A DNA stretch of 40,614 nt from the UHGV virus genome UHGV-0081829. One strand, written 5' to 3'. Made by a program: the position numbers and the translations under genes. The notes beneath the pieces are model-generated. The model searched no databases. It was not told the origin of the DNA and saw only the letters and a program-made list of their open reading frames with translations. Each line of letters begins with the position of its first letter. Within the stretch, counting starts at the first letter, position 1. Positions 13,512 to 28,169 of the stretch are shown here, piece after piece. Origin of the DNA: a virus.

Positions 13512-13870
13512 ACGAATATCAGTTTGTGCTTCCATACCCGCCGTCGGTGAATACCTACTGGCGAAGACGGGGAAGCCAATACTACATCAGCGATAAAGTC
13601 CAGAAATACCGAAAAGACGTTCAGCAAATTATCCGCCAACTTAAGTTAGATATTTTCACCAAATCACGACTCCGCATCAAAGTCATCGCAGACGTTCCAG
13701 ACTCCCGCCGCCGCGACCTCGATAACATCCTGAAAGGTTTACTCGACTCCCTTATCCACGCCGGATTTGCGGAAGACGACGAGCAATTCGATGACATTCG
13801 CGTAATTCGTGGTGTGAAAGTACCAGGCGGACGGCTTGGAATAAAAATCACCGAACTGGAGAACGCATGA
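13508..13870 (+). CDS. rusA: RusA Holliday-junction resolvase
   Basis: 120 aa; N-terminal FVLPYPPSVNTYWRRRG and acidic D/E residues typical of RusA. Confidence 0.85.
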   Translation: MNEYQFVLPYPPSVNTYWRRRGSQYYISDKVQKYRKDVQQIIRQLKLDIFTKSRLRIKVIADVPDSRRRDLDNILKGLLDSLIHAGFAEDDEQFDDIRVIRGVKVPGGRLGIKITELENA

Positions 13871-14055
13871 ACGCCACAATTCAAACGATACCAGAGCTTC
13901 TTATCCAGACACGAGGCAATCAGACCGAAGTGGCGAGGATGCTTTCCTGTGCAAGAGGAACAGTGCTCAAGTACAACCGATACAGCAAAGGTGAGCGTCA
14001 CGTAATAGTTAACGGCGTCCTGATGGTCAAACAGGGCAAGAGGGGAAGACGATGA
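13867..14055 (+). CDS. ninH: NinH-like protein
   Basis: 62 aa; ...TIPELLIQTRGNQTEVARMLSCARGTVLKY... resembles lambda NinH (..YGNQTEVARRLKCSRGTVRKY..) as recalled. Confidence 0.75.
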   Translation: MNATIQTIPELLIQTRGNQTEVARMLSCARGTVLKYNRYSKGERHVIVNGVLMVKQGKRGRR

Positions 14056-14570
14056 GCATAAGAGAACTAAACCTCACCAAAGAGCAGCACGAGTGGCTAA
14101 ATGGCTGGCTTGAACTGTGGGGTGCATGGGTTTATTCAGGTCGTCTGGAAAAGCGCATGAGCAGCGTAATAGCGAAGTTCATGGAGAGCGTAGAGCCGGG
14201 AAGAGTTATGACAAGGCCAATGTGTAATGATGATGATGGAATGTTGATTTCTCAGGTCGTCGATTCCGTCATGTACATTGACAAGAAAGCCTTTGGCATC
14301 CTCCTCAGCTACTACGCTCATGGTTCATCTAAGCGAGCAATTGCATCCTACTATCACGCGACTGCAAAGCCACGCAAGATGTGTGGGCGTGGTGGTGAGG
14401 GATGGAGAAAACCTTCACTGGCAACCTGTAGAAACGAAATTGACGACATCCTGAAAGCGTCATTATTTGTTTTATACCAGCCAATGCAAAATGCTTTCAA
14501 AATGCGCAAACGTGTTGAGAAAGTTAAGCATGTTGCTGTTAAAAGCCTTGACATGCAATTATCCATTTAG
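14052..14570 (+). CDS. Q: Late-gene antiterminator Q
   Basis: 172 aa at the NinH-to-lysis junction, immediately upstream of a strong promoter and terminator (pR'/tR' arrangement); family assignment by position and recollection. Confidence 0.6.
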   Translation: MSIRELNLTKEQHEWLNGWLELWGAWVYSGRLEKRMSSVIAKFMESVEPGRVMTRPMCNDDDGMLISQVVDSVMYIDKKAFGILLSYYAHGSSKRAIASYYHATAKPRKMCGRGGEGWRKPSLATCRNEIDDILKASLFVLYQPMQNAFKMRKRVEKVKHVAVKSLDMQLSI

Positions 14571-14577
14571 CCATAAT
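14548..14577 (+). promoter_or_regulatory. Candidate late promoter pR' (-35 TTGACA, 18-bp spacer, -10 CATAAT)
   Basis: TTGACA at 14548-14553 and CATAAT at 14572-14577, overlapping the 3' end of Q. Confidence 0.5.
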
Positions 14578-14586
14578 TAGCAGGTA

Positions 14587-14630
14587 AGCTGCCGTTAGTG
14601 ACTCTTAAGTTGCAACGGTGGCTTTTTTAT
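14587..14630 (+). terminator. Candidate tR'-like intrinsic terminator
   Basis: 8-bp stem AGCTGCCG/CGGTGGCT (two G-U pairs) with a 21-nt loop, followed by TTTTTTATTT. Confidence 0.4.
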
Positions 14631-14632
14631 TT

Positions 14633-14707
14633 GGGTCAGTCGTATAAAGGTCATTACGGAAGGCTGTTAACCTTCTTATCGTGGTTCGAGTCCACGCTGT
14701 CCCGCCA
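14633..14707 (+). tRNA. tRNA-Asn (anticodon GTT), phage-encoded
   Basis: 75 nt; anticodon stem GAAGG/CCTTC with loop CTGTTAA; T-arm CGTGG-TTCGAGT-CCACG; acceptor GGGTCAG/CTGTCCC (one U-U mismatch); 3' CCA encoded. Confidence 0.6.
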
Positions 14708-14712
14708 AATAT

Positions 14713-14788
14713 GCTGGTTTAGCTCCAATGGTAGAGCGGTCGCCTTGTAAGCGAATGGGTAGCGGTTCAAGTCCGTTAACCAGCACCA
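14713..14788 (+). tRNA. tRNA-Thr (anticodon TGT), phage-encoded
   Basis: 76 nt; perfect acceptor GCTGGTT/AACCAGC; D-arm GCTC-CAATGGTA-GAGC; anticodon loop CTTGTAA; T-loop TTCAAGT; 3' CCA encoded. Confidence 0.7.
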
Positions 14789-14905
14789 TAACTGAGCCGT
14801 AGCCACTGGCTATCCTGAACTCATCAGTGATAGTTACGCTGCGGCCTTCTTTTCCCCCTTCCCAATATAAGAACTACGCAATCCGTTACTGGCGGAGGCG
14901 TTGCT

Positions 14906-15121
14906 ATGAAATCAATGGACAAAATCTCAACTGGCATTGCCTACGGGACATCCGCTGGTAGTGCGGGATACTGGTTTTTGCAGTGGTTGGATCAGGTCAG
15001 TCCATCACAGTGGGCTGCGATTGGAGTGCTTGGAAGCCTTGTGTTGGGTTTTCTCACTTATCTGACAAATCTGTATTTCAAAATCAGAGAAGACAGACGA
15101 AAGGCTGCGAGAGGTGAATAA
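14906..15121 (+). CDS. S: Pinholin S21-type holin (dual-start MKSMDK)
   Basis: 71 aa; [33 protein letters not shown]... matches phage 21 S as recalled; GGAGG 8 nt upstream. Confidence 0.85.
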
Positions 15122-15618
15122 TGCCTCCATCATTACGAAAAGCCGTTGCTGCTGCTATTGGTGGCGGGGCTATTGCTATAGCATCTGTGTTAATCACTGG
15201 CCCAAGTGGTAACGATGGTCTGGAAGGTGTCAGCTACATACCATACAAAGATATTGTTGGTGTATGGACTGTATGTCACGGGCATACAGGAAAAGACATC
15301 ATGCTAGGTAAAACGTATACCGAAGCAGAATGCAAAGCCCTCCTGAATAAAGACCTTGCCACGGTCGCCAGACAAATTAACCCGTACATCAAAGTCGATA
15401 TACCGGAAACAACGCGCGGCGCTCTTTACTCGTTCGTTTACAACGTTGGTGCTGGAAATTTCAGAACATCGACGCTTCTTCGCAAAATAAACCAGGGCGA
15501 TATCAAAGGCGCATGTGATCAGCTACGGCGCTGGACATACGCTGGCGGTAAGCAATGGAAAGGGCTGATGACTCGCCGTGAGATTGAGCGTGAAGTCTGT
15601 TTGTGGGGGCAACAATGA
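15121..15618 (+). CDS. R: SAR endolysin (lysozyme with N-terminal signal-arrest-release segment)
   Basis: N-terminal Gly/Ala-rich hydrophobic [20 protein letters not shown] followed by a lysozyme-like domain; start overlaps the holin stop. Confidence 0.85.
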
Positions 15619-16082
15619 GCAGAGTAACCGCGATTATCTCCGCTCTGGTTATTTGCATCATCGTCTGCCTGTCGTGGGCGGTTAATCATTACCGTGATAA
15701 CGCCATGACCTACAAAGAGCAGCGCGATAAAAAAGTCAGTGAGCTGAAGCAGGCGACCGCCACCATTACTGACATGCAGCAACGCCAGCGTGCTGCTGAT
15801 GCACTCGATGCTAAATACACGAAGGAGTTAGCTGATGCGAAAGCTGAAAATGATGCTCTTCGGCGCAAGCTTGATAATGGTGGCAGGGTGCTCGTCAAAG
15901 GAAAATGCCCTGTGCCATCCTCAGCCGAAACCTCCGGCGCCTCCGGCATGGGCAATGATGCCACCGTCGAACTCTCTCCAGTTGCTGGACGAAACGTTCT
16001 CGGTGTTCGGGACGGAATTATCCGTGACCAAACAGCACTGAGAACGCTTCAGGAGTACATCAGGACGCAATGCCTGAAATAA
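15615..16082 (+). CDS. Rz: Rz i-spanin
   Basis: ATG at 15615 overlaps the endolysin stop (ATGA); N-terminal TM then coiled coil; 155 aa. Confidence 0.75.
15835..16041 (+). CDS. Rz1: Rz1 o-spanin lipoprotein, embedded in Rz in the +1 frame
   Basis: Lipobox LIMVAGCSS, proline-rich body, AAGGAG 7 nt upstream, lies entirely inside Rz. Confidence 0.7.
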
Positions 16083-16114
16083 TTTTTTTTGCAAATCACA
16101 AAGTCAATTTAATG

Positions 16115-16137
16115 AGCCTCGCGATGCGGGGCTTTTT
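16115..16137 (+). terminator. Intrinsic terminator after the lysis cassette
   Basis: Stem AGCCTCGC/GCGGGGCT followed by a T5 run. Confidence 0.5.
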
Positions 16138-16144
16138 GCAATAA

Positions 16145-16169
16145 ATGCGTACCGCAACGCATGTTTTTT
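16145..16169 (+). terminator. Second intrinsic terminator (tandem)
   Basis: Perfect stem ATGCGT/ACGCAT with loop ACCGCA followed by a T6 run. Confidence 0.6.
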
Positions 16170-16284
16170 ACACCGAACCTGCCCTTTTGGAATGGGCCTT
16201 TGAGGATACCAGTTAGTGCTGGCGAGCCTCGGTGGGCTGGTTTCCTGTGCGGCAAAGGTTCATTTCAAAGAGTAGGTACACGCT

Positions 16285-16782
16285 ATGAAATCATTAACCC
16301 TCTTCAATCAACCAATTCGTATCGGTGAAGATGGCATGATCTGCCTCACTGACATGTGGAAAGCCAGTGGTAAAAGTGAATCTGAATCGCCGTACCACTA
16401 TCTGCGAAACAAGCAGACCAAAGAGTTCTTAGCCGAGCTGGAGAAAAACCACGAATCTGTGGTTTTTACTGAGCGCGGTGTACACGGTGGAACATATGGC
16501 GGGAAGTTTGTTGCTTACGATTATGCGGCTTGGTTAAACCCCGGGTTCAAGTACGCGGCCTATAAAGTCCTCGATGACTACTTCACCGGAGAACTTCAGC
16601 ATCGCAACAGCTTAAGTGCGCAGCTCAACATGAAATGTCATGAGTTTGACCAGAAGAAAGACATGGCGAGCTTCTGCGGACAAGGGCTGGCAGCATGGCG
16701 CTATACGAAGCCAGTGTTGGTCGCTGAGATTAACTCCCTGGCTAACCAGCTGCAGATTACGATCCCCGGGCTTCCGGGATGA
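16285..16782 (+). CDS. KilA-N domain protein
   Basis: N-terminal FNQPIRIGEDGMICLTDMWKASGK resembles the KilA-N DNA-binding domain; 165 aa. Confidence 0.6.
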   Translation: MKSLTLFNQPIRIGEDGMICLTDMWKASGKSESESPYHYLRNKQTKEFLAELEKNHESVVFTERGVHGGTYGGKFVAYDYAAWLNPGFKYAAYKVLDDYFTGELQHRNSLSAQLNMKCHEFDQKKDMASFCGQGLAAWRYTKPVLVAEINSLANQLQITIPGLPG

Positions 16783-17048
16783 GTGATCGTGTCATTGAAT
16801 GCGCCTCCAGAGCGGGGCGCGACTTCTCAGAGTTCATGAAAGGCGAGAAGGGCATGATGGAAGCATTGGCCTCGGTGGATGAGTTTGGCGAGCAGCTGCG
16901 CCTCAACGGCTGTGTCAATCATCACTTTGTTAGCTACATGATGCGGAACTCGATCATGCAGGCATTCATGGACATGGCAAAAGCCGAGAGGAAAGAAGAG
17001 CGCCGGCGTAAGCGAGCGGAAGCAAAAGCAAAAGCAAAAGTGAAGTAG
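16779..17048 (+). CDS. Hypothetical protein (basic C-terminal tail)
   Basis: ATG overlaps the upstream stop (ATGA); 89 aa ending in a Lys/Arg/Ala-rich repeat. Confidence 0.45.
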   Translation: MSDRVIECASRAGRDFSEFMKGEKGMMEALASVDEFGEQLRLNGCVNHHFVSYMMRNSIMQAFMDMAKAERKEERRRKRAEAKAKAKVK

Positions 17049-17345
17049 CCATTACAAAGCCCATCTACGGGTGGGCTTGATAATGAAACCGGAGTTAATT
17101 TCTGGTCACTAATTAACGGCAGTACAGCGAAACAACCCAAGCCAGTAAGTGGGGAAATAACACTGGCAGCCACTGAAAGATGAACCTCCTGCCTTATGGC
17201 AAAAAAGATTCTTTGTGGTGGCGGACTGATGGAAAGACATCGGTTATTGCAGAGGCCATTCAATGAGTGGTCTCGACAATGGCTTATACCCTACACGGGA
17301 TAACTTAACTGATATCCCTTTTAACGGATAAACGGAGCACAAATA

Positions 17346-17936
17346 ATGGCAAAGCTCACCGACAAACAAGAGCTGTTTGCCCGTGAGTACCTGAAAGATC
17401 TGAACGGAACACAGGCAGCGATCAGAGCGGGCTACAGCGAGAAGACCGCCAATGAGCAGGCATCTCGATTATTAGCAAATGTTAATGTTCAAAAATTCGT
17501 TGCTGAACTTAAATCCGCCCGCGTTGAGCAGACGGGTATAGATGCCGCCTATGTTCTTCGTAGGTTGGTTGAAATCGACCAGATGGATGTGCTTGACATT
17601 CTCCTGCAAAACGGTGAGCTAAAACCCATTAAAGACTGGCCTAAGGTATGGCGCACCACGCTATCAGGAATGGATGTTGTGGAGATGGTATCCGCAGATA
17701 GTGCCGCACTTCTGAAGAAAATCAAATGGCCTGATAAGGTCAAAAACCTCGAACTTCTTGGTAAGCATGTTTCTGTTCAGGCGTTTAAAGAGCAAACATC
17801 TACAGAAATAACTGGCGCTGATGGCGGGCCTGTTCGTTATGCCGATATGTCAGAAGAGTTACTTGAAGAGAAACTGAAGGAGCTTGGTAATGGCAGGCGC
17901 TCCAATCAGCTTGAATCGAAACGCTCAGATTTATGA
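17346..17936 (+). CDS. Terminase small subunit
   Basis: MAKLTDKQELFAREYLKDLNGTQAAIRAGYSEKTANEQASRLL is a small-terminase HTH signature; directly upstream of the large subunit. Confidence 0.75.
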   Translation: MAKLTDKQELFAREYLKDLNGTQAAIRAGYSEKTANEQASRLLANVNVQKFVAELKSARVEQTGIDAAYVLRRLVEIDQMDVLDILLQNGELKPIKDWPKVWRTTLSGMDVVEMVSADSAALLKKIKWPDKVKNLELLGKHVSVQAFKEQTSTEITGADGGPVRYADMSEELLEEKLKELGNGRRSNQLESKRSDL

Positions 17937-19410
17937 GTTGCACAAAGAGCTGGCTATCCGCTCAGCAAGAAAAAACCTTCTCGATTTCACTTTGTACACT
18001 AATCCGCAATACGAAACAGGTTGGTTTAACGAGCTGCTTTGTGCTGAGCTGGATTACTTCCTGGATGAAGTTAAAGCCGGAAACATGCCCAGGTTAATGG
18101 TGTTTGCTCCTCCGCGCTCAGGAAAGAGTGAGTTGTGCTCTCGCCGCTTCCCAGCGTATGTGTTAGGACAGCATCCATCATGGAACATTATCTCGTGCTC
18201 ATATTCTTCTGACCTGTCAGACCGAATGAGCCGTGACGTTAAACGCATTATCACCTCTGACAAGTACACTGATGTTTTCCCTGATGTAAAAATTCCTTCC
18301 GGTCGTAGTCTGGCTGGCGGTATCAACAAAACCGAGCTATGGGAACCCGTTGATGCCAAAGGCGAACTACACGGCGGCTCATATCGTTCTGCTGGCGTTA
18401 ACGGTGGTATCACCGGTCAGGGTATGAATATTGGGGTTATTGATGACCCCGCGAAAGATTACAAAACCGCATCGTCTCCAACTTACCAGGAAGCGGTGAT
18501 GGACTGGTATGACACGACATTCTTCACTCGTGTTGACCCGAAGATAAACGGCATCGTCATCATTCTGACACGCTGGCATCAAAACGATCTCGCCGGACAG
18601 TTATTAAAACTAGCTGAAGAGGGCGGGGAACGCTGGCGCGTAGTTAGCTTCCCTATGGAGGCTGAAAAGGAGGAGATCCATGAACTCAACGGTAACGTAT
18701 ATCGACTGCGCAATCCCGGTGAAATTCTGTTCCCTGAGCGCATGCCGAGAGAGTTCGTAGAGAAATGCAAACAGCGCGGTTCCCTTGTATGGAATGCTCT
18801 TTATCAGCAACGACCAACCGCCAAAGGCGGGGGACTTATTAAGTCTGAATGGTTTGGTGAATATTCGGTACTCCCTCCTATGCAATGGCGTGCCGTCTAT
18901 GGAGACACCGCACAGAAAACAAAAGAGGTAAACGACTTCTCAGTATTCGAGCACTGGGGACTTGGCACTGACGGGTATATCTACCTGATAGACATGATTC
19001 GCGGCAAATGGGAGGCCGATGAATTACAGCGCCGTGCTGTTGCATTCTGGGAAAAGTGCAAAACTCTAAAGAATGGGCCACTTCGCCACATGGCGATAGA
19101 GGACAAGTCATCTGGCACAGGCCTGATACAGAACATCCGTAAAAAAGCGATATGCCCCATCAAAGCAATTCAGCGCGATAAGGATAAGTACACGCGACTG
19201 ATGGACGTGCAGGGTTATATTGAGTCCGGCTACATCAAACTCCCCAGCAACGCACCATTCATCAACGACTTCCTCGTCGAGATGGAAGCTATTAATCCTG
19301 ATTTCAATACGCACGACGACCAGCTTGATCCGATGATGGATGCCATCGATGAGATGAAAAATGGCAATGGTCCGTTACGTATATCTGAAGAACTTTTGAG
19401 GCTGGCATAG
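17890..19410 (+). CDS. Terminase large subunit
   Basis: Walker [12 protein letters not shown]; ATG at 17890 with AAGGAG 7 nt upstream (track start is TTG at 17884); 506 aa. Confidence 0.85.
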
Positions 19411-20945
19411 TGTTTAATTTTTTGAGAAAGAAAAAATCTGAGCCTAAGAAAGAAGAGGCGAAACAGCCAATGTCTCTGGCGAATGTTCTTGCGATTATTA
19501 ACGAACAGGAGCGAATTAAAAATGAAGGCGAGGCATTGCGCAGAATTGAGAGATACGTACCCCCGCCTGGCGTTATTCCTGAACATATTGGGGAGTCAGC
19601 TCTGGCGATGGACTCCACACCGTACAGTTACCTTAATTCAGCAAACATTACCGCATATGGCTACGGTGGATTTCCTGGCTACCCATATCTGTCTCAACTT
19701 GCTCAGTTGCCGGAGTATCGCAAGATTACTGGCACGATAGCAGAAGAGATGACGCGAAAATGGATTGAGCTGAAGCATGTAGGTAAAGACGATGGTGACG
19801 ACAAGGCCGATAAGATTCGCCAGCTTGACGACGCATTAAAGCGTTTCAGAGTGCGAGAGAAGTTTCGCGAGGCAGCGGAACATGACGGTTACTTCGGGCG
19901 CGGACAGATTTATATCGACGTGAAGACGCCAAGCGGTAACTCAGCCTGGCTGGTTCCCGACGAACTGGATAAGAAGCTCTATATCAGCCCGCGCAAGATT
20001 ACCAAAGGAAGCCTGAATGGTTTCCGCGTTATCGAGGCCATGTGGACTTACCCGGGCGTGTATAACGCTGACAATCCTCTAAGCCCTGACTTCTTCAATC
20101 CATCTGAATGGTATGTCATGGGGCGCACGGTTCACGCCAGTCGCATGTTGACAATGATTTCTCGCCAGGTGCCAGACATTCTCAAAGCGGCGTACAACTT
20201 CGGCGGCTTGTCGCTGAGTCAGATGGCAGAGCCATACGTGCAGAACTGGTTGAGAACACGTGACAGCGTTAGCGATCTGGTTCATTCGTTTGTGGTCTAC
20301 GGGCTGAAGACGAACATGCAGAATGCCTTGTCTGGAATTGCAGACCCAAACCTGTTTATGCGTGCCGAACTCTTTAATAAGGTTCGCGACAATCGCGGAA
20401 TGTTCCTTATTGATAAGGATGGAGAAGAATTCTTCCAGTTTGTGACAAGTCTGTCCGGAGTTGATGCTCTTCAGGCGCAAGCGCAGGAACAAATGGCATC
20501 GGTATCAAGCATTCCTCTGGTTAAGCTCCTTGGCATCACTCCTAACGGGCTAAACGCTTCATCTGATGGCGAAATCCGCGTCTTCTATGACTCAATACAC
20601 GCCATGCAGGAGAATCTGTTCAGGGTGCCGCTGAAAACAGTGCTGGATGTTATCCAGTTGAATGAATTTGGCGAGATTGACCCTGACATTGATTTTGAAT
20701 TCCTGCCGCTGTACGAGCTTACAGAAGCAGAGAAAGCCGAGATCATGAAACATCAGTCTGAGGCTGATAAGAACTATGCCGAAGCTGGCGTGTTCGACCT
20801 TGATGCAATAAGAAGCATGCGCCAGTCGGATAAGGCCAGCCCATACCACATGATGGAATCTGAATATGACGAAGAAGAGCACGAAAACGAGTCCGTCGAA
20901 GAAGGATTCGAAGACCCGGAAAACCCTTCGTCCAGTCAGAGCTAA
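19410..20945 (+). CDS. Portal protein (DUF1073-type, from memory)
   Basis: 511-aa ORF immediately after the large terminase; GTG start with GAGG 8 nt upstream (first ATG at 19470); acidic C-terminus. Confidence 0.7.
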
Positions 20946-21684
20946 TGCCGGAGTTCATGAGTGGTATCGCTCTGAGCTTCTCAAACTGGTTAGGGAGATG
21001 GATAAGTCATACCGATACTGGCTTGAGGGTGCATACAAAAACAACATGGCGATGGATTCCAGCCCTGCGAATGAGTTAAAGCGCAGATTGTCCAGACTAG
21101 GTAAGCAGTGGGAGCATAAATTCAATGAACTGGCTAAGAAACTGGCTGATCGCTTCGTTGATAAGACACTGCGCAACACCGACGTTTCGTTACACTCAGC
21201 GTTAAAGGCTGGCGGATTTACCGTTAAGTTCACAATGAATGACGAGCTTAAGAACGTGATGCAGGCTGTCGTTAACGAGAACGTCAACCTGATTAAATCC
21301 ATACCTGAACACTATCACACACAGGTTGAGACGATAGTCATGCAGTCTGTCAGCCGCGGTCGTGACCTTGGCTATCTCACTGATGAACTGGTTAAGCGAT
21401 ATGGCATTACACGCAGACGCGCTGAGACGATTGCACGCGATCAGAACAACAAAGCTACAGCGGTAATTCAGTCTGAACGGCAGAAGAAGTTAGGAATCAC
21501 CAAAGGAATCTGGCGTCACTCACACGCCGGGAAGCAGCCAAGGCCATCACATGTGAAAGCTGACGGTAAAGAGTTCGACCTCGATAGAGGGCTGTATCTC
21601 GATGGTGAATGGGTGCTGCCGGGAGAGGCTATCAACTGCCGTTGTACGTGGTCTCCTGTTATCCCTGGGATAGATAGAAAATGA
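20866..21684 (+). CDS. Head morphogenesis protein (MuF/SPP1 gp7-like); start uncertain (20866 or 20998)
   Basis: Follows the portal; track ORF overlaps the portal by 80 nt, and the in-frame ATG at 20998 is the alternative start. Confidence 0.55.
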
Positions 21685-21773
21685 TTGAGGTTTTATGGTC
21701 TCTGGGCTTAGTGTTGATTTTTGGTTGCTTAATGATTGCAATGCTGAAAATAGCTATGTCCAAGAGGAAATAA
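21681..21773 (+). CDS. Small hydrophobic peptide (30 aa), speculative
   Basis: ATG overlaps the upstream stop (ATGA); [30 protein letters not shown]; followed at once by a strong terminator. Confidence 0.25.
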   Translation: MIEVLWSLGLVLIFGCLMIAMLKIAMSKRK

Positions 21774-21775
21774 TG

Positions 21776-21796
21776 GCCGCTACTGCGGCTTTTTTA
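21776..21796 (+). terminator. Intrinsic terminator inside the head gene cluster
   Basis: Stem GCCGC/GCGGC with loop TACT followed by TTTTTTATT. Confidence 0.6.
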
Positions 21797-21818
21797 TTGC
21801 CTGCCGAAAGGTAAATGC

Positions 21819-23045
21819 ATGCCATTACGCAAAGTTAAAGGCGACTGGCAATGGGGATATCACGGATTGGCATTCGACAAGGCAACGGTGCGCTCCTTTG
21901 ATAAGGATGGGCGTTTGCATATCGAAGTGACGCCAATCAGTAAGGCTAACGTTTGCCCTTATTATGGACGTGAAATTCCTAATTACAGATCGCTAGGTTT
22001 ACAGCCTGACAAAGTTTACCACCTGCTTCGCGACCCGAAAGAGTTAGCCAAAGCAGCATCTACATTCAACAACATCCCGCTCCTTAACGAACACATTCCG
22101 GTTACTGCTTCAGACCCTCAGAAGATGGCTGTGGTTGGTTCTACTGGTACTGATGCTGAGTTTGACGGGACTTATCTCAAGAACTCGCTTGTCGTATGGG
22201 ACGCAGATTCTATCGCTGGAATCGAGACAGACGAGAAGAAAGAACTTTCGTCGGCCTACAGATATGTAGCTGACATGACCCCCGGCGTGCATGAAGGCCA
22301 GCCATACGATGGTGTAATGCGCGATATCGTCGGGAACCACGTTGCTCTCGTAACAGAGGGAAGAGCCGGATCCGACGTTGTTGTCGGGGATTCAATACCA
22401 ACAGGAATGAAATCAATGTCAGAACTTACTAAAAAGTTAATGGCAGTTATCACGCCGATGCTGGCCAGTGATGAGAAGCCAGAAGAAGTGGAAAAGAAAG
22501 TGCAAAAGGTTGTTGAAGACGAAGCCACTCAGGTCGAGAGAGATAATGAGTCAGAAGCAGAGCGTCTGAAACGTGAAGAGGATGAACTAAAAGAGTGTGA
22601 AGAACGTGAGCGAAAGGATCGCGATCGTGACCGCAAAGAAGCGGAAGACGAAGATGATGACGGCAAGGATAAAAAGACTGCCGAGGATGAAGACGATGAT
22701 GAGAATAAAGCAGCTATGGATGCCGCATTAATTCGAAAAGCTGAAGAGAATGTGATGGGGCGTATCCGTCAAGCCAATGAGGCTCGAGAATGCGTTCGCG
22801 CTTTGGTTGGTGATGTGAGTCTGGTAGCTATGGATTCCGCAGAGTCTATTTATCGCTTTGCTCTTGATTCAATTGGTGCTGAACATAAAGGCGTTCATCC
22901 TTCAGCACTTAAATCGATGGTTGAATTTGCTATCAGCCAGAAAGCGGTAGTTCGCAAACCATCTCATGGTATGGGTATGGATTCTGCCGCAACCAATTCT
23001 TTCGCCAAGGCATTTCCTGGCGCAACTAAACTGAAACGGAGCTAA
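21819..23045 (+). CDS. Putative scaffolding/prohead protein (DUF2213-like), highly acidic central region
   Basis: 408 aa located between the portal/MuF genes and the capsid gene; long E/D/K/R-rich low-complexity segment. Confidence 0.5.
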
Positions 23046-23048
23046 GAA

Positions 23049-23528
23049 ATGAGTGGCTTTCAAAGTGTAATTAATCAGCAACAGGCGCCGGGAGTTGAAG
23101 GAGATTTCGCTTCAGCTAACCCTAAAGCAAGTCTTCTTGCAGGTGAGGGAGCTCTTGTTGCCGGTGTAAATGGGGTTGTTGTTGGTCGCTTTGCATGGGT
23201 AAGAAATGGTGTTGTCAATAACACTGGAACCGGTGCTCCTGCCGGTTTCGTTCATCGGGAAGGGCAGGCGTCTGTCACCACATGGCTTGGTGAATCATCT
23301 ATGACTATTCAGCCTGGAGTTCAGATGACATTGATGACTGCTGGTGACTACTGGGTGAAAACTGCCGGTGCGGCAACTGTAGGGCAGAAGATTTTCGCCA
23401 AACTGTCAGATGGAACCATTACCGCTGGCGATGCAGGGGCGTCAATTTCGGATTACGTTGAAACAAAATTTGTTGTTGGCAGTGCTGGCGTGGCTGGCGA
23501 ATTGATTCAGATGGGCACCTGGAGCTAA
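23049..23528 (+). CDS. Head structural/decoration protein (DUF2190-like)
   Basis: 159 aa, Gly/Ala/Val-rich, directly upstream of the major capsid gene. Confidence 0.45.
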   Translation: MSGFQSVINQQQAPGVEGDFASANPKASLLAGEGALVAGVNGVVVGRFAWVRNGVVNNTGTGAPAGFVHREGQASVTTWLGESSMTIQPGVQMTLMTAGDYWVKTAGAATVGQKIFAKLSDGTITAGDAGASISDYVETKFVVGSAGVAGELIQMGTWS

Positions 23529-23531
23529 TAC

Positions 23532-24572
23532 ATGAATAACGCAGAATTTTTACAACATAAAGCTATGGCTGAGCGAGATTACGGTGTAATCCTTCCGGAA
23601 GCCAAAGCCTATCTGACGGATGCTGTTGCTAATAGCTATTCCTATGCAATGGACTCTCATCCTTCACTGGTAACAACCAGCAACTCTGGCATTCCATGGT
23701 ACTTCACTAATTACGTTGACCCGGAACTGATTCGCATCCTTGTCACTCCGATGAAAGCGGTGGAAATTCTGGGGGAAACGAAGAAGGGAGACTGGACCAC
23801 CATGACCGCACAATTCCCGGTTGTGGAATCAACGGGTCAGGTTTCCAGTTATGGTGACTACAACAATAATGGGCAGGTAAATGCTAACGTCAACTGGGTT
23901 GCTCGTGAGTCCTATCTGTACCAGACCATTACTCAGTGGGGTGAGCTGGAACTTGACCGTTACGGTGAAGGCCGCATTGCATGGGCTCAACAACTGAATA
24001 CGGCTTCTGCGCTGACCCTGAATAAGTTTCAGAACAAGTCCTACTTCTTCGGCGTTGCTGGTCTGAAGAACTACGGCATTCTGAATGACCCTAACCTTCC
24101 GGCATCAATCACCCCGGGCGCAACGGGTACTGGCAGTGGAACTACCTGGGCAACTAAAGACGGTCAGGCGGTGTATGACGATATCCAGGCGCTTTACATG
24201 CAGTTAGTGAAGCAGACCAAGGGGTACGTTGAGCGGGACAGCAAGATGACGCTGGCGATGAGTCCAGAGTCAGAAGCAAACCTGACCAAGACCAACATGT
24301 ACAACGTCAACGTGTCTGATCAGCTGAAGAAAAACTTCCCGAACCTGCGTGTTGTCACTGCTGTTGAGTACAAAACCGAATCCGGCGAACTGGTTCAGTT
24401 GATTGCCGACGATCTGGATGGTCAGGACACCGGCTACTGCGCATTTACCGAAAAAATGCGTGCGCATCCGGTTGTTGTTGACCTGTCCGCGTACAAACAA
24501 AAGAAAACCGGTGGCACCTGGGGCGCAATCATTCGCCAGCCGCTGGCATTTGCAAGCATGTTGGGAGTTTAA
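23532..24572 (+). CDS. Major capsid protein
   Basis: 346 aa in the canonical position after scaffold-like genes; family from memory. Confidence 0.6.
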
Positions 24573-24575
24573 TTC

Positions 24576-24923
24576 ATGGCAGAAATGGTAAGCGTTGGCT
24601 GCAAATTGCCAAATGGCCTTCAGGTAACTCTGGATGGCAAAACAGTAATCCTGAACGGGGCGGCAACAACCGCCCTCCGTGGTCTTGATGGTGCAATTCC
24701 TGAGGGGGCTTTCGGAGTTACCATGGTCGAGAAAGACTTCATGGATAAGTTCATCGAGACCTATAAGGATGCCGCGTATATTCAGAACAATGCAATCTTC
24801 ATTCAGAAAGATATTCGCAGTCTGAATGCGCAGGGTAAAGATCTGAAAGAATCAAAAACTGGCCTCGAAGGCCTTGACCCGGAAAATCCGGCTCCGGGCG
24901 TAAAAAAGGCTGACGAAAAATAG
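24576..24923 (+). CDS. Hypothetical head-associated protein
   Basis: 115 aa after the capsid gene; GGGAG upstream. Confidence 0.45.
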   Translation: MAEMVSVGCKLPNGLQVTLDGKTVILNGAATTALRGLDGAIPEGAFGVTMVEKDFMDKFIETYKDAAYIQNNAIFIQKDIRSLNAQGKDLKESKTGLEGLDPENPAPGVKKADEK

Positions 24924-24935
24924 CGGGAGCAGCAA

Positions 24936-25367
24936 ATGGGCGTCGTAATATTTGACCCCTCCGCATTTAAGCTACGCTATCCTGAATTCTCATCTGTCGA
25001 CGACGCACTTCTTCAGCAGTATTTCACGCAAGCAACCATTTATCTCGATAACACAGACTCAAGTCGTGTGTCGGATTTGGCTGTACGCTCAATGCTGCTG
25101 AATATGCTGGTTGCCCATATCGCCTGTTTGTATTCAGGAGCAAATGGGCAGTCTCCATCCGGATTGGTTGGAAGAATCGACAGTGCTTCAGAGGGTTCGG
25201 TTAGCGTTCATGCGGATATGCCAGGGGTAACAGCAAATTCAGCATGGTACATGCAAACAAAGTACGGGGCTGATTACTGGAATGCTACGGCGCCGTTTCG
25301 CACCTTCCAGTATATAAGCGGGCATTCTCCATCAAATTACCCGTATGGGTATTACCGGAGGTACTGA
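24936..25367 (+). CDS. Putative head-tail connector protein
   Basis: 143 aa; GGGAG 8 nt upstream; position between head and tail genes. Confidence 0.45.
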
Positions 25368-25798
25368 TGGATAAGGTGATGGATGTACTGGATGAGGTTG
25401 AAAAGCAATTTTCCAACATTCAGCTAAAGGTTGGCTTCCTTGAGGGGGCAACTTACGGCGGTGTAATCCCGGTTCCCATGGTTGCCGCGACCAACGAGTT
25501 TGGGAATCCGGCTCATAATCAGCCTCCTCGACCTTTTTTTAGAAATGCAATCGCAGAGCATGAAGAAGAATGGAAAGAGCAAACAGCACTCCTGATTGAA
25601 CGCGGCGATGATATTGGAGAGATATTTTCAATACTTGGCACCACTATTGTTAATGATATCAAAGAGTCCATAAGGGCATTTGAAAGCCCACCGCTATCTC
25701 CGATAACAATTGCCCGCAAGGGGTTCGATAAGCCACTAATTGATACAGGCGATATGCAAAAAAGCGTCAGCTATGAGGTGAGCGAAATTGAATCTTAG
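25367..25798 (+). CDS. Putative head-tail joining/neck protein
   Basis: ATG overlaps the upstream stop; GGAGG 6 nt upstream. Confidence 0.45.
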   Translation: MDKVMDVLDEVEKQFSNIQLKVGFLEGATYGGVIPVPMVAATNEFGNPAHNQPPRPFFRNAIAEHEEEWKEQTALLIERGDDIGEIFSILGTTIVNDIKESIRAFESPPLSPITIARKGFDKPLIDTGDMQKSVSYEVSEIES

Positions 25799-26159
25799 AC
25801 AGATAGCCAATAACGCGATCACAAGCATTAACCCTAACATCCCGGCAATCCTGAAAAAGTATGCAGGTGAAACTATCGGCCCCGGTCGCAAGCCGATTCC
25901 GTCTTATCTCCCTGACCAGCACGTTACCATTCAACTACAGCCAATCAGTCGCGGCGACATGCAACACGTCGATGGACTGAATATTCAGGGGCTGGCAAAA
26001 GTGATTTACGTCAATGGTAATTACTTCAGTGTGCAGCGAGAACTGGAGCAGGGCGGAGATATCTTCGTGATTAACGGGGAACAATGGCTTGTTGTTGAGC
26101 CAATAGAGTTGTGGCCTGACTGGTGCCGGCTGATTGCTGTATTGCAGGTAAGCCCATGA
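25788..26159 (+). CDS. Hypothetical virion protein (TTG start)
   Basis: TTG at 25788 with GAGGTGA 6 nt upstream; no in-frame ATG until residue 57. Confidence 0.4.
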   Translation: MNLRQIANNAITSINPNIPAILKKYAGETIGPGRKPIPSYLPDQHVTIQLQPISRGDMQHVDGLNIQGLAKVIYVNGNYFSVQRELEQGGDIFVINGEQWLVVEPIELWPDWCRLIAVLQVSP

Positions 26160-26671
26160 ATGATTTCACTGTCGATAATATTATCGATGTACTTGCTGGC
26201 TACATAGAACCTATCGCTGGTAAATGCCTGCAGGCTCAGGCTAACCGTGTACCAATGCCCAAAGATCAGTTCTGTATCCTGACCCCTTTGCGATTCACCA
26301 GGCTATCCACTACGAGAGAGCTTAAACAAGATACCGGCTCTCCGGACACAAGCACCATGGGATATACGGAAGTTCGCCAGGCTGATATTCAGGTAGATAT
26401 CTATGGTCAGGGGGCAGGGGATAGAGCTATTGCACTGGAAACAACATTCACCAGTGGATATGGCTACGACATCATCAAGGCTATTGATGCACGGCTTGCG
26501 CCGCTTTACTCATCTCCTGCCATTCAGGCGCCGATGATCAACGCCGAGAGTCAGTGGCAAGAAAGATGGACGCTGACATTGTCACTGCAAGCACACATCA
26601 CAGTGTCGTTCCAGCAGGACTATTTCGACAAAGCAGAAATTTCAATTGAACAGGTGGATAACCGCCCATGA
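26156..26671 (+). CDS. Hypothetical tail-completion protein
   Basis: ATG at 26156 overlaps the upstream stop (ATGA); track ORF 26123..26671. Confidence 0.45.
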   Translation: MNDFTVDNIIDVLAGYIEPIAGKCLQAQANRVPMPKDQFCILTPLRFTRLSTTRELKQDTGSPDTSTMGYTEVRQADIQVDIYGQGAGDRAIALETTFTSGYGYDIIKAIDARLAPLYSSPAIQAPMINAESQWQERWTLTLSLQAHITVSFQQDYFDKAEISIEQVDNRP

Positions 26672-28158
26672 GCACAATACCTTTATCTGTAGATTTTAAT
26701 ATCACGCCCAATGTCGTTACGCCTGCCGGTTCTGCGGTTGATGCTAACGGCCTGATGCTGACCGATAACGAGCTTATCCCGGTTGGCGCGGTACAATCTT
26801 ATTACTCCTCATCTGATGTATCAGCTTTGATGGGGAGTGAATCGAAAGAATTCCTCGCCGCACAACAGTATTTTAACGGATACGAAAACTCATCCGTTAT
26901 TCCTGGTGAACTGCTGATGTATCGTATTGTTACTTCACCAGTGGCTGGGTATCTTCTGTCCGGCAACCTGAAAGGTGTTTCCCTGGCAACACTGAAAGCG
27001 ATTCCAGCAGGAACAATCACCCTTTCCATTGACGGTGAGTCGACTACCAGCACATCAATTGATTTGTCCACAGCCACAAGTTTTAGTGACATTGCGTCCA
27101 GGTTGCAGGTTGGAATTGGTGCAAGCAAGGTGGTGGTTGAATGGTTGCCAATCGCTAACCGATTCATCATTCGCTCTGCCACTACTGGCGCAGAGAGTGA
27201 AGTGTCTTATGCCTCTGCTGGCGCTCTGGCTGCCGGGTTATTACTGACGCAGGATTCCGCAGCGATTGTATCACCGGGTTCTGATGCGGTAACTCTGACA
27301 GACACGATGAACAACATCATCAACGTCAACCAGAACTGGATCCTGTTTAACTCGCTGGTCGAACTGACCGATGACCAGAAAACAGAATTGTGCGCATGGG
27401 CAAGCAGCAGTAAAAACCGGTTTGGATATGTTGTTCACGACACCACTTCAGCAGGAACGGTAGCCAATAATGCCAATTGCTTTGTGCAGAAAGTGGTTGT
27501 GGCAAATGGCTACGAGAACATTTTTCCGGTGTACGGAACATACCTGTATGGCGTTACAGCACTGGCATATGCTGCATCCGTGGATTTTGCACGCACCAAT
27601 GGGCGTATCTCGTTCAAGTTCCGTGGATTTTCAGGGTTAGCACCTAACGTCAGCGACCTGGCTACGGCTCAGGCTCTGAAGTCAAACGGTTACAACTTCT
27701 ACGGCTCATACAGCCTGAACAAAACAATGGCGCAGTACGCATCTGATGGCGCCATTACTGGCAAGTTTGTATGGCTGGACAGTTTTATTAATCAGGTATG
27801 GATTAATGCCAATCTGGTTAGTGCTTTTGCCAACCTGTTCACCAATAACCAGTCTTACCCGTTCAATGAGACAGGATACGGCGCAGTTTCTGCTGCTGTT
27901 ATTGATGTTGCTGAACAGGCTCTCAATTTCGGGGCTATTCAGCGTGGCGTGAAACTTGATAATGCGCAAACCAGAATTGTGAATAACACAGTGGGAAAAG
28001 ATATCTCATCGACGCTGTACTCACAGGGCTGGTTCCTGTACATCCCGACACAGTCAGGCTCTGCACGCATTGAGCGCGACCTGAAAGGTGTCATTTTTTA
28101 TTATGTCGATGGGCAACTTATTCAGTCCATCACAATGTCCTCAACCGCGATTTTATAA
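26668..28158 (+). CDS. Tail sheath protein (DUF3383-type, from memory)
   Basis: 496 aa directly upstream of a tube-sized gene, chaperone pair and tape measure gene; ATGA overlap. Confidence 0.7.
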   Translation: MSTIPLSVDFNITPNVVTPAGSAVDANGLMLTDNELIPVGAVQSYYSSSDVSALMGSESKEFLAAQQYFNGYENSSVIPGELLMYRIVTSPVAGYLLSGNLKGVSLATLKAIPAGTITLSIDGESTTSTSIDLSTATSFSDIASRLQVGIGASKVVVEWLPIANRFIIRSATTGAESEVSYASAGALAAGLLLTQDSAAIVSPGSDAVTLTDTMNNIINVNQNWILFNSLVELTDDQKTELCAWASSSKNRFGYVVHDTTSAGTVANNANCFVQKVVVANGYENIFPVYGTYLYGVTALAYAASVDFARTNGRISFKFRGFSGLAPNVSDLATAQALKSNGYNFYGSYSLNKTMAQYASDGAITGKFVWLDSFINQVWINANLVSAFANLFTNNQSYPFNETGYGAVSAAVIDVAEQALNFGAIQRGVKLDNAQTRIVNNTVGKDISSTLYSQGWFLYIPTQSGSARIERDLKGVIFYYVDGQLIQSITMSSTAIL

Positions 28159-28169
28159 GGGAATAAATC

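Follow-up and report, generated by a model that had tools for sequence, protein, structure and literature searches.

Why should an operon of phage head genes hold a 30-codon open reading frame (ORF) and, directly behind it, what looks like a transcription terminator? The question is raised by UHGV virus genome UHGV-0081829, a stretch of 40,614 nucleotides (the window), in which an ORF opens on the stop codon of a head-morphogenesis gene of the Phage_Mu_F family (Mu-F below) and a hairpin separates it from the gene for a DUF2213 protease/scaffold protein. An earlier note on this DNA had seen a layout resembling a small membrane toxin or regulatory peptide, joined to a strong terminator in an unexpected place. 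The ATGA overlap and the 30 codons that it had read were confirmed from the sequence and the ORF list. We consider it probable that the 134-bp insert between the Mu-F and DUF2213 genes is a moron-like accessory insertion, made up of a peptide gene and a separable, conserved terminator at the 3' edge of a slot. The elements at issue are the following.

21681..21773 (with stop), + strand: gene for a predicted single-pass membrane peptide, 30 codons (ORF list, substitution ratios, family, AlphaFold2)
21681..21684, + strand: ATGA start/stop overlap, read from the sequence, a translational-coupling signature
21775..21790, + strand: putative terminator hairpin GGCCGC, loop TACT, GCGGC(T) (fold, scan, homologous hairpins)
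21790..21801, + strand: T-run and ATTGCC (TTTTTTATTGCC), with T6 at 21790-21795 (identity across contexts)

The 30-codon ORF as a gene

The ATG of the peptide (21681-21683) shares bases with the TGA of the Mu-F gene (21682-21684), its TAA lies at 21771-21773, and each of the 33 loci of the first set that carry the peptide has the ATGA. The 22 distinct DNA variants that keep the frame have 17, 6, and 23 variable sites at codon positions 1, 2, and 3, respectively. The ratio of nonsynonymous to synonymous polymorphism (pN/pS), calculated over 26 codons and from non-independent pairs, is 0.31 in the peptide frame by the Nei-Gojobori method and 0.21 after Jukes-Cantor correction, compared to values of 0.72 and 2.06 for the two remaining sense frames and of 0.57-2.11 for the antisense frames; the adjoining Mu-F gene gave 0.03-0.06. 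As the signal is specific to the frame and the ratio is higher than that of Mu-F, the substitution pattern indicates that the ORF is a real gene under purifying selection, and that this selection is weaker than that on the Mu-F core gene. The ORF is intact in 21 of 22 distinct DNA variants from the 33 peptide-bearing loci.

A lack of conservation in related phages had been named as grounds for dropping the ORF; this was checked, and a profile search groups the conserved family into 26 clusters at 90% identity. The ORF was found in every locus with a head-morphogenesis protein at least 87% identical to that of the window (80 viral contigs), and a Pluralibacter relative, with a head-morphogenesis protein 88% and a protease 69% identical, carries a homologue of 33 codons that likewise opens on the ATGA. 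The relatives carry three forms of the peptide, including MIEVFKALGLTLIFGG..IA.LTIT.LKKNNGR and MIEVFKALGLTLIFGGV.IA.LVITALAKK. Both the exact peptide and its relatives occur in a collection of 15 billion proteins, where they are mostly unnamed; the names that do appear on family members are "hypothetical", "putative holin-like toxin" (from the Prokaryotic Genome Annotation Pipeline, PGAP, in Enterobacter asburiae), and "chitin synthase regulator" (in a third-party annotation record). Only 11 family representatives were found among 1.84 billion proteins, which marks a narrow orphan family, and a tblastn search of the peptide against phages gave no match. Wherever the context was looked up, the peptide gene lies between Phage_Mu_F and DUF2213 genes. 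This holds even for the divergent locus L084, whose Mu-F protein is 42% identical to that of the window; here the peptide gene starts clear of the upstream stop codon, behind a GAGG Shine-Dalgarno sequence of its own.

Other readings of the same letters were rejected. A 39-aa ORF (21695-21814) that runs across the hairpin has the frame with a pN/pS of 2.06 and is closed in one relative (L003), and an antisense 34-aa ORF (21659-21763) has a pN/pS of 0.57, worse than the sense frame. The latter frame is open in 11 of 11 representatives, and such openness is to be expected on the strand opposite a hydrophobic gene. The heptamer TTTTTTA was dismissed as a slippery site because no conserved ORF spans it. 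In one family member (P0075) the loop has no stop codon and the ORF runs through the terminator to 45 aa (...GRLGRPFLLPEER).

A variable cargo slot between two head genes

A census of the Mu-F/DUF2213 junction was taken over 84 loci, comprising the window and the related loci L001-L083. The slot was found in the following states.

29 of 84 loci: no insert (gap of at most 17 nt), for example Klebsiella phage ST899-OXA48phi17.1
30 of 84 loci: peptide and hairpin only
3 of 84 loci: peptide, further ORFs of 52-115 aa, hairpin (L025, L028, L053)
13 of 84 loci: unrelated cargo, then hairpin
7 of 84 loci: unrelated cargo, no hairpin (for example, an HNH-AP2 endonuclease)
2 of 84 loci: hairpin alone, in a 63-nt gap

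The ORF and the hairpin are separable units, and the junction is a variable cargo slot. The earlier note had taken the two as one layout, and each is found without the other. As related phages exist that do not carry it, the peptide is dispensable for head building. The guanine-plus-cytosine (GC) content is 35.5% in the ORF, 41.0% in the insert, and 49.0% and 47.5% in the flanking genes, and part of the low value of the ORF may come from hydrophobic-codon bias.

When L084 is compared to another locus, L086, the identity is 88% for the DNA that separates the peptide stop from the protease ATG and only 52% for the adjoining Mu-F genes. Likewise, the peptide gene of L084 is 77-80% identical to those of L025, L028, and L053, with Mu-F genes that are 54-55% identical. 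Judged from such identities, cargo moves horizontally between backbones. Gene callers miss small membrane proteins, and the 30-codon ORF is an accessory gene of phages that is both conserved and exchanged horizontally.

Ten other cargo proteins were searched against Pfam, of which the HNH-AP2 endonuclease alone received a name. It is encoded by a free-standing homing-endonuclease-like gene (HNH_3, 47 bits) in the 516-nt slot of L033, L034, and L042, where no hairpin is present. In L084 (4127-4318) and L086 (4184-4375), a 63-aa two-helix membrane protein (MNKKSINTLSKAY.KGGYWGAALGVSVATTI...) is encoded between the peptide gene and the hairpin. Small Cys-rich ORFs stand beside the hairpin in different slots (Salmonella phage ES18, L207, at 2135-2293; L059; L050; L114), some of which share ...GPKIPP... 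and resemble ES18 gp4; their recurrence across slots suggests that cargo is shuffled between slots.

A near-invariant hairpin at head-gene junctions

The hairpin stem of the window begins one base past the peptide stop, and the protease start lies 23 nt beyond the T-run. Six pairs, five G-C and a closing G.U with the first T of T6, enclose a 4-nt loop. The hairpin alone folds at -10.6 kcal/mol, its 42-nt context has a z of -3.5 relative to shuffles, and it is the best plus-strand terminator-like site in 14000-30000. By its letters, the element lacks none of the sequence features that mark an intrinsic terminator. The description of a hairpin and T-run following the ORF therefore held in its sequence features, with the correction that the stem starts at 21775 and not at 21776; "strong" was a generous word for a stem of 5-6 bp. 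One copy is present in the window. The TTGCCT located 3' of the T-run was rejected as a promoter, as the nearest -10-like hexamer is only about 9 nt away.

Pairwise identity over the 50 nt of hairpin, T-run, and leader is 75-99% among loci where the Mu-F proteins are 54-66% identical to that of the window, and it is 98-99% for the T-run with ATTGCC over 34 distinct contexts. Upstream of the stem the cargo differs, and identity there drops at once to a background of 0.29-0.35. A comparison anchored on the head-morphogenesis stop was unreliable as C-terminal lengths vary. When 27 distinct copies were aligned, the arms were paired in 99.4% of cells, compared to 20-65% in slid registers, and the hairpin structure appears to be maintained, although covariation does not prove it.

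A search of IMG/VR with the 18-mer GCGGCCTTTTTTATTGCC resulted in at least 120 exact matches. As the query fixes the 3' arm and the T-run, only the remaining sequence is informative, and in 115 of the 120 matches listed the 5' arm, 6-8 nt long, is complementary throughout. In all, 41 loop sequences and 98 upstream contexts occur among the same matches, and GGTCGC/GCGGCC, with a U.G wobble, is the dominant arm pair (84 cases among the matches listed), of which the window hairpin (GGCCGC/GCGGC+U) is a slightly divergent variant with a 3' arm one base shorter. The dominant form folds at -9.4 kcal/mol as sense RNA and at just -4.0 kcal/mol on the complementary strand, which points to function as an RNA on the coding strand. 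A same-strand ORF ends at most 80 nt upstream in 105, and an ORF of at least 60 aa starts at most 90 nt downstream in 99, of the 120 matches listed. The recurring downstream genes are mostly head genes and encode divergent DUF2213 proteases, Phage_portal_3 portals, and a DUF6651 protein. Edwardsiella phage GF-2 has the same element at its Mu-F/protease junction.

The earlier note had called a terminator unexpected within a late operon. Many divergent relatives have the hairpin at this very junction, it is found at further junctions between head genes, and it is annotated in ES18; given this recurrence at head-module junctions, it is a conserved feature of this class of module and no anomaly. 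The ES18 copy (AY736146, 2082-2103), already known as a "putative terminator" after gene 3, is essentially the same element, GGTCGC-tacg-GCGGCC-TTTTTTATTGCC-TGAAAT.... Like that of the window, it follows a small gene of unknown function and precedes a conserved head gene; it lies in the terminase-portal slot and that of the window in the MuF-protease slot.

A further parallel is found in the promoter early stem-loop (PeSL) cassettes of T4-like phages (PMC2839356, PMC4122927), in which, as in the window, conserved stem-loop motifs border variable genes between core genes. PeSLs appear as exchange points between otherwise unrelated sequences (PMC2839356, PMC4122927). Unlike PeSLs, the window element has no promoter half, is present in one copy per window or locus, and marks the 3' side only; the phages concerned are temperate and enterobacterial rather than T4-like, and recombination at the motif is inferred. 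The hairpin differs so little from one backbone to the next that it could provide the homology at which cargo is swapped. Tentatively, (A)GGTCGC-nnnn-GCGGCC-TTTTTTATTGCC-TGAAAT... may be a portable junction cassette of ES18/DUF2213-type enterobacterial head modules, one that defines portal and protease cargo slots and serves as an exchange anchor. If true, the cassette would be the temperate-phage counterpart of the T4-like PeSLs, exchanging accessory genes between unalignable backbones. The element makes the hypothesis of moron swapping directly testable, and a near-invariant terminator can be used to locate prophage cargo, including candidate defence, anti-defence, and toxin genes. In the literature searched, both the peptide family and a near-invariant hairpin-leader that marks the 3' edges of cargo slots seem to be undescribed.

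Several other features were seen next to copies of the hairpin. In L084 (4386-6293) the DUF2213 gene has an N-terminal ADP-ribosyltransferase exotoxin domain (PF03496, 67.6 bits), and such fused genes are also present in L105, L120, L140, L142, and L157, with the domain directly 3' of the conserved hairpin; the domain could be a toxin delivered via a capsid-assembly protein. The Mu-F/protease slot of GF-2 (L208) contains a match to the Rfam int-alpA RNA (2739-2804; 44.4 bits, gathering score 35.8) upstream of a 56-aa ORF and the hairpin. No Rfam family covering the common hairpin was found. In L089, L188, and L189, a tRNA-like sequence (GCCTGTAGCTCAGAGGA...) directly follows the hairpin and T-run, and the element thus precedes RNA genes too.

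Peptide structure and the question of toxicity

AlphaFold2 predicts one helix spanning residues 2-29 (predicted local distance difference test score, pLDDT, 91). The hydropathy is 2.56 over residues 4-22, and the N-terminal and C-terminal flanks have charges of -1 and +4, respectively, bearing out in the model the single transmembrane-like helix with a basic tail that had been described. Under the positive-inside rule, such flank charges suggest that the N-terminus is out and the C-terminus in.

A relation to Hol_Tox (PF16935) was sought with the Pfam hidden Markov model (HMM). Of 28 family members, 14 match at E <= 1, with the best score for P0011 (25.1 bits, gathering score 23.3) and five others at 18.0-22.7 bits. 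The scoring relatives are the 33-aa forms, which align over positions 2-31 of the 34-position model, and neither of the 30-aa subtypes matches. TxpA, a type I toxin from a Bacillus subtilis prophage, carries PF16935, and cationic C-terminal residues are typical of such type I toxins (PMC8309996). Like Hol_Tox/TxpA and BsrG, the family has about 30-60 aa, one hydrophobic helix, and a cationic C-terminus and is prophage-borne; it differs in its Gram-negative host range, the absence of a stand-alone locus, and the fact that no antisense antitoxin RNA was seen. That the peptide is a small membrane toxin is therefore weakly supported: some 33-aa relatives score near the Hol_Tox threshold, one of them above it, and the window peptide itself does not match. 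Its likeliest activity, which we put forward with reserve, is that of a membrane-perturbing, toxin-like late effector.

Matches to phrog_9488 (E 0.006) and ComI (14 bits relative to a cutoff of 55) were weak and judged compositional. By position the peptide is not a holin, as its gene lies among the head genes, 5.6 kb from the lysis cassette.

A search for regulatory signals found no sigma-70 site of at least 8/12 within 260 nt upstream of the peptide gene in the window, L021, or L025 (consensus scan only), and weak 8/12 matches only upstream of the gene in L003. On the minus strand in 21600-22200 no convincing promoter was found, the best being an 8/12 site inside the protease gene. Rfam gave nothing above threshold in the window; isrK and AaHKsRNA82 were far below their gathering scores, look like generic terminator similarity, and were rejected.

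Proposed role of the insert and alternative explanations

The peptide of the window is a moron-like accessory membrane peptide of unproven function and a fairly ordinary accessory gene. Lambdoid morons such as HK97 gene 15 (PMC3594210) are likewise extra DNA between conserved late structural genes that is absent from relatives, with a lower GC content, a terminator, and a small inner-membrane protein as product. Of the features that define a moron (Juhala et al. 2000, via PMC3594210), the extra DNA, the deviating composition, and the terminator are present in the insert, and a promoter of its own, from which the repressed prophage could express it, was not detected. Unlike morons, then, the insert has no detectable promoter and its start overlaps the stop of a late gene, so that expression looks late rather than prophage-driven. 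In addition, the terminator is not private to the cargo but belongs to the slot, where it is shared and highly conserved.

The peptide would accordingly be a product of late lytic growth, made from the late transcript that depends on Q. Ribosomes would re-initiate at the ATGA overlap, and the peptide is probably translated by coupling to the upstream gene. It would insert in the inner membrane with its acidic N-terminal end out and its basic C-terminal tail in the cytoplasm, and could perturb the membrane in a toxin-like or holin-like manner that tunes late events, for example by hastening depolarisation-triggered lysis. In phage 21-type systems, release of the signal-arrest-release (SAR) type of endolysin is triggered by depolarisation. 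The window appears to encode a small holin together with a signal-anchored endolysin, and so it is natural to suspect an effect on the timing of lysis. More broadly, the peptide is a candidate for a membrane effector that acts late, be it in lysis timing, in exclusion, or in host shut-down. As the window encodes a Q antiterminator, the late operon should, by analogy with lambda biology, read through the hairpin, and a terminator in the late operon is expected to be tolerated in this way. Q-modified RNA polymerase would ignore the hairpin during lytic growth, and unmodified polymerase would stop there, keeping the capsid genes insulated or silent in the lysogen. Read-through by antiterminated polymerase is classical moron logic (PMC3594210). 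The near-identical hairpin could at the same time serve as a homology anchor for cargo swapping.

A number of observations weigh against this account. The pN/pS of the peptide has the small, non-independent basis given above. In one E. coli-type contig (L015, 3316-3410), a 1-nt deletion shifts the frame of the peptide gene and leaves 21 aa. RefSeq/PGAP leaves the ORF unannotated in the E. coli prophages (20 complete genomes). The window peptide has no match to the Hol_Tox HMM at E <= 10 and no assignment in Pfam, NCBIfam, or PHROG, the family profile reaches no Firmicute Hol_Tox protein at E <= 0.001, and the link to Hol_Tox could be a similarity of hydrophobic composition only. The covariation test on the stem is not decisive, since there is hardly any variation in the stem: a double change was seen in a single pair, and values as high as those observed arose in 43-54 of 500 shuffles. 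The promoter scan covered the sigma-70 consensus alone. A hairpin ahead of the most abundantly needed head proteins is sensible only if read-through is efficient.

Alternatively, the insert could be a lysogenic-conversion moron, in which a peptide expressed from the prophage sits in the inner membrane and blocks DNA entry by superinfecting phages, like HK97 gp15, and the terminator ends the prophage transcript. Insertion relative to other phages, the lower GC content, and the terminator (PMC3594210) would fit, as would the position of HK97 gp15, also a small inner-membrane protein within a late structural operon, and the presence of other small membrane proteins among the cargo of the slot. 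We consider this explanation unlikely, as the 260 nt upstream contain no promoter-like site in the window, L021, or L025 (the matches in L003 being weak), the ATGA overlap binds translation to a late gene, and there is no sequence similarity to gp15/YebO. The ORF might instead act in cis as a leader, with a ribosome at the stop codon masking the 5' arm of the hairpin, lowering termination, and coupling capsid expression to upstream translation. The stop codon of the window stands 1 nt before the stem, the 33-aa forms stop within the loop (GGT CGC TAA), and unrelated cargo ORFs end in or beside the hairpin (L085, ...QTGR*), and that of P0075 reads through it. Constraint at the amino-acid level and the conserved helix nevertheless suggest that the product matters, the hairpin is found with no ORF entering it (L054, L063) or with stops 7-20 nt upstream elsewhere, and Q antitermination would make the mechanism redundant; a leader function is thus quite improbable.

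If the locus were a type I toxin-antitoxin module of the TxpA/BsrG type, an antisense RNA over the 3' end would silence a peptide toxin and the pair would stabilise the prophage. The borderline Hol_Tox matches of the relatives, the prophage-borne TxpA with its PF16935 domain (PMC3531473; PMC8309996), and a hydrophobic helix with cationic C-terminal residues speak for such a module. It is very unlikely here, given that no convincing minus-strand promoter was seen in 21600-22200, that the common hairpin would be unstable as an antisense RNA, that the gene is co-directional in a late operon with an ATGA overlap, unlike stand-alone type I loci, and that the window peptide fails the Hol_Tox HMM. 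If an old insertion had left a non-coding spacer in which the ORF is fortuitous, this would explain why PGAP leaves the 30 codons unannotated and why the antisense frame is open in all 11 representatives. We give this explanation hardly any credence, as the substitution pattern is frame-specific, nearly all distinct DNA variants (21 of 22) are intact, and the peptide gene is kept, with its own Shine-Dalgarno sequence, in backbones with 42% identical neighbours. The moron-like accessory insertion with late expression is the reading that we prefer.

The late operon of the window

The window is a lambdoid prophage of E. coli type with a Q antiterminator. Matches to its head region, at 96-99% identity, are present in 20 of 5426 complete E. 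coli genomes, and a megablast search of the region against GenBank phages gave no close match. The features that set the context are listed below.

14052..14570, + strand: Q antiterminator gene (Pfam Phage_antitermQ, 90 bits; homologue annotated in L001)
14548..14577, + strand: pR'-like promoter, TTGACA, 18-nt spacer, CATAAT, 11/12 of the consensus
20866..21684, + strand: head-morphogenesis gene (Mu F / SPP1 gp7-like), 272 aa (Pfam Phage_Mu_F, 56 bits)
21802..21818, + strand: leader and Shine-Dalgarno sequence of the protease/scaffold gene, AAAGG at 21807-21811, 7 nt before the ATG
21819..23045, + strand: DUF2213 prohead protease/scaffold gene (Pfam DUF2213, 171 bits; annotation in relatives)

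The promoter-like site at 14548-14577 has the top consensus score in 14000-30000 and may be the phage late promoter. It is followed by a tRNA pair, Asn-GTT and Thr-TGT, at 14633-14788, between the promoter-like site and the lysis genes. The lysis cassette (14906-16082) encodes a 71-aa holin-like ORF with two transmembrane domains (TMDs), a lysozyme, and Rz, and appears to resemble the phage-21 type, with a small two-TMD holin and a signal-anchored endolysin. An N-terminal hydrophobic, signal-anchor-like segment was seen in the lysozyme (cassette positions 14906-15618). The co-directional structural operon comes after the lysis cassette, with the head genes in the order terminase, portal (Phage_portal_3), Mu-F-like, DUF2213 protease/scaffold, cement protein, and major capsid. 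RefSeq names the product of the head-morphogenesis gene "phage head morphogenesis / minor head protein". The DUF2213 gene forms the right edge of the cargo slot, and its leader is kept in the close clade as TGAAGAAAGGTAAATCC-ATG.

In a close relative, the E. coli Z1323CEC0009 prophage (L001), IS100 of the IS21 family breaks a KilA-N gene at 13873-15674; the element is absent from the window, and homology skips from L001 position 13786 to 15741. The naming of the portal gene is inconsistent across RefSeq: most genomes have "DUF1073 domain-containing protein", NZ_CP035850 and NZ_CP022279 have "anti-CBASS protein Acb1 family protein", and Pfam assigns Phage_portal_3 (307 bits).

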